Assembly: GCF_052117125.1 (NCBI RefSeq)
Contig: NZ_JBQKJT010000001.1
Location: forward strand, 46,684-70,683
Reading direction: 5' to 3'
DNA length: 24,000 nt
Source: Candidatus Avoscillospira sp. LCP25S3_F1
GTDB taxonomy: Bacteria > Bacillota > Clostridia > Oscillospirales > Oscillospiraceae
The translations under genes and the position numbers were made by a program. Under the pieces are notes generated by a model. That model saw nothing but the letters and a program-made list of their open reading frames with translations. It did not search any database and had not been told where the DNA came from. Positions 1-21,171 of this stretch are shown piece by piece; within the stretch, counting starts at the first letter, position 1; each line of letters opens with the position of its first letter.

Positions 1-2198
1 ATGTCCTTGTCCGTTGCTTGGTCCGGGTCCCAAAGGTCAAATGAGTGCTCTGACTCAAATACTCGAGTTAATCTTTCCGCAAACGCCTTTACTGATAAGC
101 GGTAATTTCCATTTGTCCTCATTTCCTTTACAACACGGAAAATACCACGCCGCCGGAGAAACTCTTGATAGGATTTCTCCATATAATTCGCAAAGAATGC
201 TGCTTCACTTCTGCTATCAGAGAAACACAGAAATTGTTTTGCTTTTTCCTTTAACTCAGGTTTTTTGATATTTCTCACTTGAGCAAAAGGATCATCCGTC
301 CATTGGATCGCCTCCTTGTCTGAGTTTTCTGCAGGTATTACGACTTCTGCATCTGGAAGCTGCTCAAAAAGCTCCGTACACAGAACCGCTGTAGCAGCAT
401 CAGAACCCAGATAGAAGCTGCGAAAACTTCCATATCCGCAAGCCGGACATTTGGCAATTTTCTTACCTTTCGTTCGATTTACACGCTTAAGATGGATATA
501 TTCCGCTTTTTTACAATCACAAATCGAACCCAAAACAATATCTGCTTTGGTGCCCATCTTCCCGCATTGCGTGCAAATTACAAAATCATTTTCACCTTGA
601 TCTTCCAATGCTTCTCCTTCTGCATCTTCGATGCCCATATCTTTCAATTCGGCATCATCCCACAGAAGAAAAAACTCGCAATCGTCGGGATCTTGTTCCG
701 ACTTCCTGGAAACCTGCCGATACTGGCCGCATTCATTTTTTCCGACCAGTGCAATCCGACCACAATCCTGACAAATTGCGATTTCAAATACGCCCTGCCC
801 CTGTTCGTTGCGCTCCCTGCGCTTCAAATAGAGCCTTTTGGGATTTCCCAATGTAATGTAAGCTCCCTCCAACGCCCGGACAAAGAAATGATATTTGGCT
901 TTGATAAGGCTGGCACCATTTTTCTCCGCCGCAGTGCAAACTGCCACAAAATCAATCAGTTCTTCCTTTGAGATGCCCAAAGACTTTCTGATTGTATCGA
1001 TTGTTTCCGGCATTATAGTTGCACATCTAAAACGGTAAAAAAGGTCGCAGTGCAGCAAAAATTCATAGATTTTTTCCTCTGTATCCCCATTGGGAGCATA
1101 ATCCTCGATACCGTACTTTTGCAGTATTTCCCCCAACGGGAGTCGCTTTTCCGCAATCTCCTTAAAAATAGCAACTGGAACATCCAATCGTTCCTTGATG
1201 GCCGGACTGGCATCCTGAGAGCGGATAATATTCTCCGGGTAAAATTCTACGCCACAAAGATTTTTTCCAAAATCCACAATATCTTGATTGGCATCCTCTC
1301 CCCCAAGTGTAGCACTGGTCAGAATATATTGCACACTGCTGTTTCCAATCCGGGCACGCAGGCGACGCATAAGCATAGAAGTCTCCATGCCAGTTGTTCC
1401 TTTATATACATGCGCTTCATCCAAAACCACAAAGTGAAGTCTTGCGCTGGAAAAGACTTTATCATCTTTTGGACGAAGCAGCATGTATTCCAACATGGAA
1501 TAGTTGGTAATCAATATGTGGGGCGGCGTCTGCTGCATTTCCTCTCTGGACAATATTTCATTGGTCAACGGCTCTGGAAATTCTGCATTGATACTGTTTT
1601 TACGATATTGCTCCCGAGCCTTTGCCCTGGTATATTCTGTATTTCCGTTATAAAGACCAAACGTAATATCTGGATAATTACGCAAAAGTCTGCGCATTCG
1701 TTTGATCTGGTCATTGGCCAGCGCATTCATGGGATAGATAATGATGGCGCGAACGCCGTTCACGCTCAGTGTGCCTACTTCTTTTTCCTTCAAAAGTGAA
1801 TGGAGGATTGGAAGCAAAAAACATTCCGTTTTGCCAGAACCTGTTCCTGTGGTAACTACAAGATTATTTCCAGCTGCTGCTTTTTTTAGTGCTTCTACCT
1901 GATGCAGATACAAAGAGCGTTCCAGCTTCAGCTCACGCTTCTTTTCTGCAACCGGCTCCAGCTCTGCAAATTCTCTACTGGCAATGCCACTGGCTATCAA
2001 CTGAGAGAGACTTTCGCCGGTTTTGTAGGACCCGCTCACATCCAGGTATGGTCCCTTGGCCACAAATCCTTCTTTCTCTAATTGTGTCCGCAGCTCTTTG
2101 GCATACTCTTTGTCTGCAATGTCAAAACTGGTGGTAATGTAGTCCACATAGCTTTGCTTTATGTTGTCAGACGCCACAATTGGGTCAAATCGGTTCAA
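1..2198 (-). CDS. Superfamily-2 DEAD/DEAH-box helicase, first ~732 codons (3' end beyond window start); YprA/DrmA/DruE-like with zinc-ribbon insertions
   Basis: Open minus-strand frame from TTG 2198 to the window edge. The TTG overlaps the upstream stop as TTGA, with AGAGGA 8 nt upstream. It is absent from the ORF track because it has no stop in the window. My translation shows Walker A TTGTGSGKTE (GTGSGKT = 1827-1847), HILITNYSMLEYMLLRP, motif II VVLDEAH (DEAH = 1410-1421) and motif III TSATL. These are followed by CxxC pairs (CQDCGR, CTQCGK, CPACGY) and CFSDSRSEAAF at the start of the second RecA lobe. Confidence 0.85.
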   Translation of the reverse strand, partial: MNRFDPIVASDNIKQSYVDYITTSFDIADKEYAKELRTQLEKEGFVAKGPYLDVSGSYKTGESLSQLIASGIASREFAELEPVAEKKRELKLERSLYLHQVEALKKAAAGNNLVVTTGTGSGKTECFLLPILHSLLKEKEVGTLSVNGVRAIIIYPMNALANDQIKRMRRLLRNYPDITFGLYNGNTEYTRAKAREQYRKNSINAEFPEPLTNEILSREEMQQTPPHILITNYSMLEYMLLRPKDDKVFSSARLHFVVLDEAHVYKGTTGMETSMLMRRLRARIGNSSVQYILTSATLGGEDANQDIVDFGKNLCGVEFYPENIIRSQDASPAIKERLDVPVAIFKEIAEKRLPLGEILQKYGIEDYAPNGDTEEKIYEFLLHCDLFYRFRCATIMPETIDTIRKSLGISKEELIDFVAVCTAAEKNGASLIKAKYHFFVRALEGAYITLGNPKRLYLKRRERNEQGQGVFEIAICQDCGRIALVGKNECGQYRQVSRKSEQDPDDCEFFLLWDDAELKDMGIEDAEGEALEDQGENDFVICTQCGKMGTKADIVLGSICDCKKAEYIHLKRVNRTKGKKIAKCPACGYGSFRSFYLGSDAATAVLCTELFEQLPDAEVVIPAENSDKEAIQWTDDPFAQVRNIKKPELKEKAKQFLCFSDSRSEAAFFANYMEKSYQEFLRRRGIFRVVKEMRTNGNYRLSVKAFAERLTRVFESEHSFDLWDPDQATDKD

Positions 2199-3010
2199 AA
2201 ATCATCTTCCTCTCTGAATGCAAACTCATCAGCAATGGGAAATCTTTTCCACGCTTCTTCCGGTGGACAATCCCATTTTCTATTTTTTATGCGCACATAT
2301 CCTTTTTCCAGATACACTTTTGTATCTACATCAAGCAGCAGCGGCTCTCCGTCTGCATTGTAAACTTTTACTCGATTACCCTGTACAACGCAGAAGGACA
2401 CTGGGTTAATGTTTTCGTACTGTTCATTCTCCGGGTCATTGTTCATATAGTTCCATCGTTGATCCGGAGCACGAAATGAGAGCACGCCTTCATACGTCGG
2501 AACTGGAGGTTCAAACTCTCCGTCAAAGTCACGCATACCAATGTATTCAATGTCAAAAATAACCGCATCATTGTAGTGGAACTTTGCCATCTCTATTTTC
2601 CGTGTTTCACAGGACCAGAACCACACTTTCATAAGGCGAACAAATTTCCCATCAAACCTACATTCAGGCCGTTCTTCAATTTGGAACGTTTCTTCCCAAA
2701 CCAACTGGCGGCGATCTCCAACAACAAAAGGATTATCATTCGGCAGGTCAAGAAATACCTTGCATCCATAACTCCCCGGCTTGCAGGAAAAGTTTTTTTC
2801 AAAAGGCTTTCCGGGCTGAAGTTGTCTATAGATCCACGGATCATTCTGAACATCATTTTCCAATTCCACTGTAAATTTTGGAGAACCTGGGCCTATAAAG
2901 TTTGAGTCAGGTTCCCATATGATACATGTGTTATCACGGATCAATGGCGAGGTCAGAAACGCAGGAGTAAAATATACATCTGCTACGGGGGCTGATTCTG
3001 GAAAGACCAT
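2195..3010 (-). CDS. hypothetical protein (271 aa), translationally coupled to the helicase
   Basis: ORF track. Its stop at 2195-2197 overlaps the helicase TTG start. I recognise no motif in it. The ATG at 3010 is immediately preceded by an in-frame TGA. Confidence 0.65.
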   Translation of the reverse strand: MVFPESAPVADVYFTPAFLTSPLIRDNTCIIWEPDSNFIGPGSPKFTVELENDVQNDPWIYRQLQPGKPFEKNFSCKPGSYGCKVFLDLPNDNPFVVGDRRQLVWEETFQIEERPECRFDGKFVRLMKVWFWSCETRKIEMAKFHYNDAVIFDIEYIGMRDFDGEFEPPVPTYEGVLSFRAPDQRWNYMNNDPENEQYENINPVSFCVVQGNRVKVYNADGEPLLLDVDTKVYLEKGYVRIKNRKWDCPPEEAWKRFPIADEFAFREEDDF

Positions 3011-3179
3011 TCATCCAGCGGCAGACCAGGCCGTTATCCAGATAAAAGTCCTGTTCCTCTTTCTGGTTAAAAAAACTGGCAAAGAGTTCATAGAGCAAAT
3101 CGGTCTGGCTCATATTGCGGTCATCACTGATATAGCGGCGGATAATCGCCATAATCGAGCAGAAATCACATCGCTCCAT
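2934..3179 (-). CDS. small hypothetical protein (81 aa), first gene of the helicase operon
   Basis: ATG at 3179 is preceded by GGGAGGG plus 5 nt. The ORF-track start 3206 is an upstream upper bound. It overlaps the next ORF by 77 nt in another frame. Confidence 0.5.
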   Translation of the reverse strand: MERCDFCSIMAIIRRYISDDRNMSQTDLLYELFASFFNQKEEQDFYLDNGLVCRWMNGLSRISPRSRCIFYSCVSDLAIDP

Positions 3180-3342
3180 AAATACCCTCCCTTCTGCTTT
3201 TGTCAATTTGCGGTCAACTCCCGCTCAATGCAAGTCAGTCCAGTTCTTGATACACTGAAACCACAACAGAGGTCCCAACCCGCTCCTGAAAAACATTGGG
3301 TATAGCAGGCAGCCTCTCCCTCATAGATTGCACTATCGGGAG

Positions 3343-3555
3343 GTGTGTGGTATCAGCAGAAAAAGCGCTCCAATCCATGTGATTGTCCATGCCCCAAAAA
3401 CAGAAGCCGGACAGCTGGAACTGGCGAAACGCGTTGCCGGTGTCCATGCCGATCTGGTGCATCGCTACATACAAAAGCTGCGTTGCCCCACAGAGGAAAA
3501 AGCAGCGTTATTGGATGCCGTCATTGCAACCGTCAAAAAGAACGCAGGAGATTGA
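3343..3555 (+). CDS. conserved small protein, copy 1 (about 66-70 aa); start codon uncertain
   Basis: The frame is open 3328-3555. The last 66 codons are 59/66 identical to ORF 17941-18153. Codon differences between the two copies are roughly 10 synonymous vs 7 replacement, which argues for real coding. In-frame GTG 3343 abuts GGGAGG (3338-3343) and ATC 3352 lies 8 nt after it, so the initiation codon is unresolved. Confidence 0.6.
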   Translation: MCGISRKSAPIHVIVHAPKTEAGQLELAKRVAGVHADLVHRYIQKLRCPTEEKAALLDAVIATVKKNAGD

Positions 3556-3724
3556 ACCCGTGTGGGTTTGATTTCCTGGGCATTTCGCAAGACGCCTCAC
3601 CATACAGGTTACACCAGTTTTCCCTATTTTTAGCAATTTATATTGTAGGATGTGTGTTACTTGATCGCAAGAGAATCTAGCAAAAATTTACAGATTATTT
3701 TCATCTATGTTTTCCCTTCATAGC

Positions 3725-3772
3725 AAAATAGCAGATGGTCAAACCTGCTGTGGTTTGACCATCTGCTATTTT
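3725..3772. terminator. bidirectional rho-independent terminator
   Basis: Perfect 21-nt arms aaaatagcagatggtcaaacc / ggtttgaccatctgctatttt with a 6-nt loop. A-run and T-run flanks lie between convergent genes. Confidence 0.8.
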
Positions 3773-3779
3773 TATTGGG

Positions 3780-4070
3780 TTATTTTCCAAACAAATCGCT
3801 ATGGGTTCCGGTTCTGGCCAAAGTCAGAACCAGCACACCGTTTTCAATACGGTAAATCAACAGCCAGTCCGGCCCGATATGGCATTCCCGAAAACCACCC
3901 CAGTTCCCGGTCAGTGCATGATCCCGGTGTTTCTCCGCCAACGGTTCATCGTTGGCCAATGCCGTGATGATGGTATCCAGCAGCTCCAGGTTCAACCCAC
4001 GTTTTCTGGCCTGTTTGTAGTCCTTTTTGAAGGCTGTGGTCAATTTGACGGTATATTTCATAGAGCTCAT
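3780..4070 (-). CDS. yafQ: type II toxin, RelE/YafQ-family mRNA interferase
   Basis: MKYTVKLTTAFKKDYK...HALTGNWGGFRECHIGPDWLLIYRI...ARTGTHSDLFGK matches the YafQ pattern (..RTGTHAALFG). ATG 4070 overlaps the antitoxin stop as ATGA. An alternative ATG lies at 4061. Confidence 0.85.
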   Translation of the reverse strand: MSSMKYTVKLTTAFKKDYKQARKRGLNLELLDTIITALANDEPLAEKHRDHALTGNWGGFRECHIGPDWLLIYRIENGVLVLTLARTGTHSDLFGK

Positions 4071-4345
4071 GCCTTCAAGTCCGCAAACAATTCATCCAGG
4101 TTCGTATACCCTTTCACCGAAGGGTCCCTGGCAATGCGCTCTGCCTCCAGCATGGCCGCCACCGTCTCCCGATTGGGCTGGTTCAGCGAGATTTCAAAGG
4201 GAATACCGCCTTCCCGGAGGGCCTGCCGCACAAAAATATTGAATGCGGTGGTCAGGTTCATGCCCAGTTCGGCAAACAGTGCATCGGCCTGGGCCTTGAG
4301 GTCTGCATCCATGCGGATGCTGATATTGGTTGTGTTGTTGGCCAT
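4067..4345 (-). CDS. dinJ: type II antitoxin, RelB/DinJ family
   Basis: MANNTTNISIRMDADLKAQADALFAELGMNLTTAFNIFVRQALREGGIPFE is a ribbon-helix-helix DinJ-like N-terminus. ATG 4345 is preceded by AAGGAG plus 8 nt. The gene sits directly upstream of the toxin. Confidence 0.85.
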   Translation of the reverse strand: MANNTTNISIRMDADLKAQADALFAELGMNLTTAFNIFVRQALREGGIPFEISLNQPNRETVAAMLEAERIARDPSVKGYTNLDELFADLKA

Positions 4346-4448
4346 TGGCTCCACTCCTTCCTTTGATATCTCTATTGTATTCTGTTTGCACGAGAATTAC
4401 AATATATTGCACGAAAATTTTTTGTTGTCTTTGAATCTACAACCATCA

Positions 4449-4476
4449 TTGAAAGTTTGTTACGTTATGATATAAT
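4449..4476 (+). promoter_or_regulatory. sigma-A-type promoter in front of the recombinase 5' fragment
   Basis: TTGAAA (4449-4454), a 16-nt spacer, then TGA-TATAAT (extended -10, 4468-4476). AAGGAGG at 4502-4508 and ATG at 4516 follow. Confidence 0.55.
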
Positions 4477-4515
4477 ATAATAAATGATATATCATAAAAA
4501 CAAGGAGGAAAAGCC

Positions 4516-4710
4516 ATGGCAACGCAAAATCAAACCATAGCCCTCTACTCCCGCAAGTCCCGGTTTACCGGCAAGGGCGAGAGCATTGGCAATCAGGTGG
4601 AGCTATGTAAAGAATATGTGCGGCTGCACTTTGGAGAGCAGGCCGCGGAACAGCTGGTTATCTACGAAGACGAAGGGTTTTCCGGCGGCAATTTTGTTGG
4701 GGTAAGATAG
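4516..4710 (+). pseudogene. 5' fragment of a large serine recombinase gene, truncated after codon 60
   Basis: MATQNQTIALYSRKSRFTGKGESIGNQVELCKEYVRLHFGEQAAEQLVIYEDEGFSGGN matches the N-terminus of ORF 18996-20816. Homology stops at 4694 and the frame runs into a stop 5 codons later. Confidence 0.85.
4541..4694 (+). repeat. direct repeat, left copy (partner 19021-19174)
   Basis: 154 nt with one mismatch (4548 c vs 19028 t). 4549-4694 is identical to 19029-19174 (146 nt), at an offset of 14480. Confidence 0.95.
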
Positions 4711-20816: not shown

Positions 20817-21171
20817 AATCCTGATGCACTTTCGCAGCCAGAAAAAGTCCAGCGGCGACGTATCTCTGTCCGATTACATAGAAACGGGCAAGGACGGCAA
20901 CGCTCTTTCTCTGATGGACGTCATCTGCACCGATGATGATCTATTCGAGGACCTCAGCGCCCGGGAGAATGCCGCACGGCTCCACCGGGCCATGAAAGAG
21001 GTCCTGACGGACCGGGAATTGCTGGTGGTCCAGCTTCGGTATGGGCTGGGTGGCCGTAAACCCCTGACCCAGCGGGAGGTGGCCCAGCAATGCGGCATTT
21101 CCCGGTCCTATATCTCCCGCATTGAGAAAAAGGCCCTGCAAAAGCTGGAAGCAGCGTTCCGGGATTCCTGA
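20806..21171 (+). CDS. sigK: 3' segment of a split sporulation sigma factor K gene (spoIIIC-like); no start codon of its own
   Basis: IANEILMHFRSQKKSSGDVSLSDYIETGKDGNALSLMDVICTDDD...RELLVVQLRYGLGGRKPLTQREVAQQCGISRSYISRIEKKALQKL aligns with sigma-K regions 3-4 (B. subtilis [41 protein letters not shown]...[27 protein letters not shown]). Regions 1-2 are absent. Confidence 0.75.
   Translation: MANEILMHFRSQKKSSGDVSLSDYIETGKDGNALSLMDVICTDDDLFEDLSARENAARLHRAMKEVLTDRELLVVQLRYGLGGRKPLTQREVAQQCGISRSYISRIEKKALQKLEAAFRDS

Follow-up and report, generated by a model that had tools for sequence, protein, structure and literature searches.

A DruE helicase gene preceded by two small reading frames

The subject of this study is a putative, decayed Druantia-type defence locus of Candidatus Avoscillospira sp. 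LCP25S3_F1. It lies at the left end of a stretch of 24,000 nucleotides (nt), called the window throughout (contig NZ_JBQKJT010000001.1, positions 46,684 to 70,683; G000:C1:46684-70683), and positions refer to the window unless another prefix is given. Three open reading frames (ORFs) follow one another on the minus strand, i.e., a small ORF of 81 or 90 amino acids (aa), a middle ORF of 271 aa, and the beginning of a large helicase gene, for which neighbouring DNA beyond the window edge was added. An earlier note on the window had described them as a tightly coupled three-gene operon and an unclassified defence-like module. All three ORFs are indeed present, together with the 77-nt overlap of the first two (2934-3010) and the TTGA start/stop overlap of the second and third (2195-2198). 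The description of the surroundings as AT-richer DNA of a mobile element with an adjoining toxin-antitoxin pair was also borne out, because the local GC content is 44% compared to 50-65% further right in the window, the locus is part of a sigK-intervening element, and RelB/YafQ genes are found at 3780-4354. In agreement with the same note, which had recognized neither DISARM nor Druantia partner genes, the small and the middle ORF matched no PADLOC, Pfam, or NCBIfam model, apart from a single chance match to JetA (E = 0.027). The operon had been thought to continue upstream of position 1, but the missing part is the downstream end of the helicase gene.

The complete helicase gene has 1619 uninterrupted codons (G000:C1:44022-48881), 732 of them inside the window, and its TTG start codon at 2198 is preceded by an AGAGGA ribosome-binding site (RBS). 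When the full protein was compared with the PADLOC profiles, DruE1 (1.5e-182) and DruE3 (2.7e-172) matched over nearly the full length, while DpdJ (8e-27), DrmA (7e-17), BrxH, and Cas3 scored far below. The Pfam domains are DEAD (5.6e-25), Helicase_C (3.7e-12, residues 980-1048), and PF09369 MZB/DUF1998 (3.9e-12, residues 1485-1568), and a CDC...CYHC motif at residues 1558-1567 lies within the MZB/DUF1998 region. All core motifs are intact, namely GTGSGKT at residue 118, ILITNYSMLEYMLLRP at 228, DEAH at 260, TSAT at 294, and QRAGRAGR (motif VI) at 1040. The nearest solved structure is PDB 9tu7, a 2108-aa DEAD/DEAH helicase (4e-86), while YprA of Bacillus subtilis reached only 6e-21, and all TIGR/NCBIfam models of housekeeping helicases stayed far under their cut-offs. 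On these matches the protein is assigned as a full-length, intact DruE, which confirms and narrows its previous placement in the YprA/MrfA-DrmA-DruE group. Orthology to the housekeeping helicase MrfA/YprA was also considered, and it was ruled out by the NCBIfam scores, the far better match to DruE than to YprA, and the location in a mobile element.

An insert of about 650 aa with five CxxC pairs (residues 476, 542, 584, 917, and 929) follows the first RecA domain (RecA1) and aligns to the DruE profiles. A zinc-rich insertion after RecA1, composed of a BrxA-like part and a beta-barrel, is known in the ARMADA-Druantia clade (PMC12458937), and the CxxC insert probably represents this insertion. 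The earlier note had seen about 300 aa with three CxxC pairs between the two RecA lobes. The three pairs are real (476, 542, and 584, in the window portion), but both the length and the number of pairs were too small, and the second RecA domain (980-1048) is located beyond the window edge, so that the window holds only RecA1 and part of the insert.

DruE ends about 50 residues after the MZB domain, and the DruE3 profile is unmatched beyond position ~1690 (~1700-2055 of 2055). Neither this profile nor Pfam revealed a PLD nuclease tail. The DruE of Muriventricola aceti (1727 aa) has an extra C-terminal tail of about 110 residues without a counterpart here. A C-terminal truncation relative to the M. 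aceti protein was ruled out, because a DruE from a metagenome contig (L031, 81% identity) has the same short C-terminus. Therefore, DruE is compact by nature here, and its short end does not mark another truncation.

Two gene fragments joined at a breakpoint

A word-based search with the 271-aa ORF retrieved a single relative of 221 aa. A genome scan led to M. aceti, in which the match lies at the end of a 986-codon ORF that has an ATGA overlap with the gene for the 1727-aa DruE. In a tblastn comparison of the 986-aa protein with the window, residues 726-985 aligned to 2986-2201 with 69% identity (4e-121), residues 1-725 had no match in the window, and the corresponding first 725 codons are absent from the entire genome assembly, which is 96% complete. 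A phmmer search through all of 1.8 billion representatives yielded 75 matches, nearly all of them about 970-1050 aa long, with the matched region at their residues ~725-985. The few matches of about 300 aa retain sequence from upstream of the C-terminal domain and look like contig-end fragments. Judged from these alignments, the 271-codon ORF is the C-terminal ~27% (~262 residues) of a DruE partner of about 986 aa. Its codons 1-8, including the ATG at 3010, represent another frame of a gene for a STAND NTPase (see below), and a good RBS is missing. The ATG appears to have arisen by chance and not to be a real translation start. The ratio of nonsynonymous to synonymous substitutions (dN/dS) was calculated to date the truncation, but it was uninformative owing to the saturation of dS in the comparison with M. 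aceti. On a metagenome contig with 2.6x coverage (L003:1515-1535), a gene closely related to the M. aceti partner gene contains an in-frame TAG (TCG to TAG) around codon 737. This stop codon splits off the same C-terminal domain, about 11 codons away from where the window copy is truncated, and may be due to an error in sequencing or represent another, independent break at a domain boundary.

The small ORF has a different origin. Similarity to its homologues is confined to the first ~65 residues (MERCDF...ISPR), beyond which the sequences diverge. In three related elements (L011, L012, and L013) the same leader sequence runs into an NB-ARC/TPR STAND protein of 464-714 aa, followed by RepA_N and MobA/MobL genes. 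The order on longer contigs is large serine recombinase, RelB, YafQ/ParE, small ORF, and STAND leader. Longer members of the family align with the STAND ORF start, and in L012 the leader and the body form one frame broken by a 1-nt shift. This frameshift occurs around codon 36 of the STAND gene in all three elements (L011:7856-8023, L012:1591-1758, L013:1569-1736) and separates a leader of 55 aa from the NB-ARC body; it is not present in the window. The 81-aa ORF consists of the 65-residue leader without the NB-ARC/STAND ATPase domain, the NB-ARC and TPR parts having been deleted. Its homologies thus identify it as codons 1-65 of a STAND/NB-ARC NTPase gene of the element plus 16 out-of-frame codons. 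A STAND leader of the MERCDF type was also found beside a TIR-domain protein and a DpnII-type restriction-modification pair (L010:146-4496). Therefore, this gene family also occurs in defence islands outside of sigK elements.

The transition between the two fragments can be located exactly. From 4694 down to 2984 the window has 94-95% DNA identity to L011, L012, and L013 over 1712 bp, and this identity ends sharply at 2984, a position 30 nt into the STAND gene of the three relatives. The minus strand reads ...ATCAGCCCCCGTA up to the junction and GCAGATGTATATTTTAC... after it, and a three-way comparison revealed a microhomology of at most 3-4 bp. The partner frame is open for eight codons back into the STAND-derived DNA, as far as the ATG at 3010. 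A run of five C residues lies inside the 77-nt overlap, at the junction, and is derived from the element, the L011 homologue having CCCC preceded by T. Both the overlap and the C run exist because the stub frame runs on for 16 codons and the partner frame is open for eight codons in the opposite direction. The 77-nt overlap is a deletion scar and not the sign of tight operon coupling for which it had been taken, and the two upstream ORFs are fragments of two larger genes joined out of frame. According to the family consensus, the conserved C-terminal domain of the partner starts within 2-3 residues of the breakpoint.

The whole arrangement is bracketed by the two halves of sigK (Table 1), and therefore the Druantia remnant is cargo of a sigK-intervening (skin-like) element. 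The element of about 25 kilobases (kb) between the sigK halves holds the DruE locus, the RelB/YafQ pair, a nested element of 14.5 kb, and the 605-aa serine recombinase. The housekeeping genes RarA/MgsA and Rex are found further left.

Table 1. Positions of the genes and other features of the locus (window coordinates unless prefixed with G000:C1)
Feature	Position	Strand	Remarks
Small ORF	3206->2934	minus	90 aa from TTG; 81 aa from ATG at 3179, strong GGGAGGG RBS upstream
Stub ORF, 81 codons	2934..3179	minus	codons 1-65 STAND/NB-ARC, codons 66-81 out of frame in partner-gene DNA to a stop
Middle ORF	3010->2195	minus	271 codons, ATG at 3010
Breakpoint	2984..2986		element DNA identity ends, partner homology begins
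Partner remnant	2986-2198	minus	codons 9-271 of middle ORF; partner residues 726-986
druE, first 732 codons	3..2198	minus	TTG start at 2198; rest beyond window position 1
Backbone of the serine-recombinase, sigK-intervening (skin-like) element	2984..4694	minus	94-95% identity to L011/L012/L013
Small ORF of the element	3235-3474	minus	element backbone
YafQ/ParE-type toxin	3780-4070	minus	Pfam labels of homologous genes
RelB-type antitoxin	4067-4354	minus	Pfam labels of homologous genes
Recombinase 5' copy, 60 codons	4516-4695	plus	copy of the serine-recombinase 5' end
Serine recombinase, intact, 605 aa	18996-20816		adjoins the region-4 sigK half
sigK region-4 half	20824-21171		right bracket of the element
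sigK region-2 half	G000:C1:41910-42425		left of the window

The partner and DruE in other genomes

Nine other loci were compared, i.e., that of M. aceti, four metagenome contigs (L029-L032), and four Bacillota genomes that carry the partner family. In eight of them (M. aceti, all four metagenome contigs, and three of the four Bacillota genomes) the gene for a full-length partner immediately precedes druE, and in the ninth (G306) the partner is split. In that genome, ORFs of 488, 526, 253, and 464 aa take the place of the partner gene before the gene for a 1585-aa DruE (L026; G306:C1:2965000-2983000), and the partner profile matches only the first of these (488 aa). The partner of G306 may be naturally split or decaying. 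Among 40 relatives of the host genome none contains the partner gene. The trio of small ORF, middle ORF, and helicase, the synteny of which had been proposed as a check, was found in no other genome or metagenome contig searched, and the exact 30-mer across the junction had no match in the metagenome contigs. Therefore, the conserved unit is the pair of partner and DruE, not the trio. The gene downstream of druE varies, being a NERD-UvrD helicase gene in M. aceti and a gene for a DUF2806/Abi_alpha protein here. The former matches the PADLOC model RTasNERD-Hel (3e-59) and is found with the M. aceti DruE at L004:9760-16718. The latter (302 aa, Pfam 2e-20 and 2.5e-8; L002:12327-13235, minus strand) starts 103 nt downstream of druE, outside of the window, has no PADLOC match, and may represent a separate gene of the abortive-infection type where the element ends.

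The position of the partner raises the question of whether it is a DruH. None of the DruH3 models of PADLOC was matched by the remnant, the intact 986-aa protein, 42 family members, or seven other Bacillota partners, while DruH of Escherichia coli ATCC 8739, the positive control, matched ten DruH3 models. An hhalign comparison of a 42-sequence partner profile with E. coli DruH gave a probability of 0.3%. Sequence searches of the PDB with the single partner sequence and with profiles of 9 and 42 sequences revealed no solved relative. The AlphaFold2 model of the intact partner, based on a 9-sequence alignment, is poor (predicted local distance difference test, pLDDT, of 54 on average and about 30 in the C-terminal domain), so that it only suggests helices in the N-terminal region and beta-sandwich repeats after it. 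A Foldseek comparison of this model with the PDB retrieved only generic Ig/FN3 arrays, with template modelling (TM) scores of 0.1-0.15. Thus, by sequence the partner is not detectably a DruH, and the likeness is restricted to position, size, and the absence of domains. Since the family lies outside of the DruH models and the hhalign probability is that low, the intact pair would be a variant built around DruE that has hardly been described and comes closest to subtype III-B.

Compact DruE proteins are not rare in this phylum, as they were found in 37 of 400 sampled Bacillota genomes (about 9%). An ORF of 750-1660 aa adjoins the compact DruE in 15 of 16 additional Bacillota loci (L035-L050), and a large ORF adjoins druE in all loci that carry the partner family described here. 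The DruE-adjacent ORFs of the additional loci are members of fast-diverging families, and a scan of seven of them gave no match to a DruH model. One ORF of this group matches the candidate model C3a139 'HKD+Snf2' (4e-77). The DruH3 model PDLC00039 had zero matches in 400 genomes, which is a weak negative, because it had zero matches also in the control genomes. Because current DruH models miss these ORF families, standard tools are expected to call an orphan DruE at such loci and thus to under-call Druantia type III in Bacillota.

Interpretation and comparison with known systems

Taken together, the locus is likely the decayed form of a Druantia-type system of two genes, encoding a large partner and a compact DruE without PLD tail, and it is carried as cargo in a sigK-intervening serine-recombinase element. 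The module that had been left unclassified would thus be a degraded form of an already named type of system. In the most parsimonious history, an internal deletion or an illegitimate recombination event would have joined codon 65 of the STAND gene out of frame to codon 726 of the partner gene. The first 725 codons of the partner, the 3' portion of the STAND gene, and whatever lay between the two genes would have been lost in this event. The predicted products are a translatable stub of 81 codons, an ORF for the C-terminal domain of the partner without a real start, and an intact druE with its own RBS, which is probably transcribed from the promoter of the STAND gene.

While anatomy, breakpoint, homologies, and synteny elsewhere were computed, the mechanism against phages and the loss of function are what we infer. 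In type III Druantia, DruE acts as a dimer, which loads on 3' overhangs or exposed single-stranded DNA (ssDNA) and unwinds in the 3' to 5' direction, and DruH binds ssDNA (bioRxiv 10.64898/2026.05.12.722862, 10.64898/2026.05.13.724758). By analogy, an intact DruE of the present type would load on exposed ssDNA of a replicating phage and unwind it 3' to 5'. Both proteins are needed in the E. coli type III system (bioRxiv 10.64898/2026.05.12.722862), and a system of Mycobacterium smegmatis with a compact DruE also needs DruH, DruE alone giving little or no protection (PMC13316683). Since the characterized type III systems depend on both proteins, the window copy has probably lost its defence function or is weakened, and the intact relatives of the locus should act like type III Druantia.

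Several points weigh against the view that the system has decayed. The druE gene is without any decay, as all 1619 codons are open and every motif is intact, and the 262 codons of the partner are also still open. This means that the deletion happened recently or that what remains is still in use. The position of the cut at the boundary of the C-terminal domain could reflect selection for the surviving module. Furthermore, the requirement for a partner, which is applied here by analogy, is known only for canonical DruH systems, and this partner family lacks detectable resemblance to DruH.

The truncated locus might still work as a minimal defence module, which would consist of DruE alone or of DruE and the C-terminal domain of the partner, the translation of the latter starting at the chance ATG or resulting from coupling. 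We regard this as unlikely. The fully open druE and remnant and the breakpoint just before the conserved domain would be in agreement with it, as would the in-frame TAG near the same boundary in the low-coverage L003 relative, the partner divided into several ORFs in G306, and the fact that several DNA/ATP-contacting residues of E. coli DruH are located in its C-terminal part (bioRxiv 10.64898/2026.05.12.722862). However, the remnant ATG has no recognizable RBS, the N-terminal 725 residues are kept in a single ORF at every other locus except the split one, DruE alone gives none or much weaker protection in the characterized systems, and the short database matches retain upstream partner sequence and look like ends of contigs. 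That partner residues 726-986 and the compact DruE form a naturally minimized Druantia-like module that still defends is improbable in our view. If it were true, the C-terminal domain would be the part of the partner that works with DruE, and the N-terminus of 725 residues would be dispensable or regulatory.

A genuine, co-evolved operon of three genes, and thus a new defence system, has become very improbable. The ORFs are co-directional and overlapping, and the two small ones have no match in the three model collections, but each of these is a fragment of a larger gene that is intact elsewhere, the arrangement was found nowhere else, and the overlap coincides exactly with the breakpoint of DNA homology. 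A chimera of the assembly, which would mean that the real genome has intact genes, has an equally small probability. The genome is a draft of 88 contigs, but the contig in question is 323 kb long, no repeat that could have misled an assembler is present at the junction, only the 3-4 bp microhomology, the DNA to the left and right of the junction belongs to a single element enclosed by the sigK halves, and the assembly does not contain the missing 725 codons. A functional chimeric protein, formed by a -1/+1 slip at the CCCCC run that is located exactly at the junction and would join the frames by a 1-nt shift, is hardly credible, because the run is element-derived sequence at a recombination scar, the two halves stem from unrelated proteins never fused elsewhere, and there is no evidence of a slippery heptamer or a stimulatory structure.

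The main value of the decayed-system interpretation is corrective, as it removes a false new three-gene system and underscores that a deletion scar can mimic the tight coupling of an operon. In addition, a natural truncation that has kept exactly the C-terminal domain is a ready construct for the dissection of the partner.

The comparison with known systems begins with MrfA/YprA, which share the superfamily 2 (SF2) core and the MZB domain. In contrast, the protein described here is twice as large, contains the putative DruE-specific insert, is much closer to DruE (4e-86) than to YprA (6e-21), and is encoded in a mobile element with a partner gene found in 0 of 40 related genomes. Druantia types I, II, and IV (DruABCDE, DruMFGE, and DruE-DruF-DruL, respectively; for type IV see PMC8565338) share the DruE helicase, and DruE1 was marginally the top match. 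However, no homologue of DruA-D, DruM/F/G, or DruL adjoins, according to PADLOC scans of the flanking ORFs here and at the M. aceti locus, in which neither the upstream ORFs nor the intact partner matched any model. Type III-A of E. coli (DruH of 1119 aa and DruE of about 2104 aa; PDB 9tu7 series) has a homologous DruE core (4e-86; DruE3 2.7e-172), and an ssDNA-triggered 3' to 5' unwinding that requires both genes is expected for it as well as for the present type. The differences are the missing C-terminal PLD nuclease domains (profile positions ~1700-2055 unmatched) and a partner that is not recognizably a DruH. Concerning membership in type III, the gene directly upstream is not a detectable DruH homologue, and the two-gene unit is incomplete in this genome.

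The described example of subtype III-B is MSMEG_1253/1254 of M. smegmatis, a DruH of 1132 aa with a compact DruE of 1667 aa without PLD (PMC13316683). The intact relatives of the present locus resemble it in having a domain-less protein of about 1000 aa, which overlaps and lies upstream of a DruE of about 1600 aa without PLD tail, and in a DruE with DEAD, Helicase_C, and DUF1998/MZB domains and the putative Zn-rich insert after RecA1. In contrast to III-B, the partner matches no scanned DruH3 model of PADLOC, hhalign detected no similarity between it and E. coli DruH, and in the window it is cut to its last 262 residues. This architecture, a domain-less partner and a compact DruE, matches what has been described in the literature as Druantia 'type III-like' or III-B.

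Last, the locus resembles skin and other sigK-intervening elements in its location between the sigK halves and in the adjoining large serine recombinase. It differs from them in that its cargo is a slot for defence genes, which is occupied by a STAND NTPase in the relatives L011-L013 and by the Druantia remnant here. The contents of this one slot are thus an example of the turnover of defence genes in sporulation-linked mobile elements.

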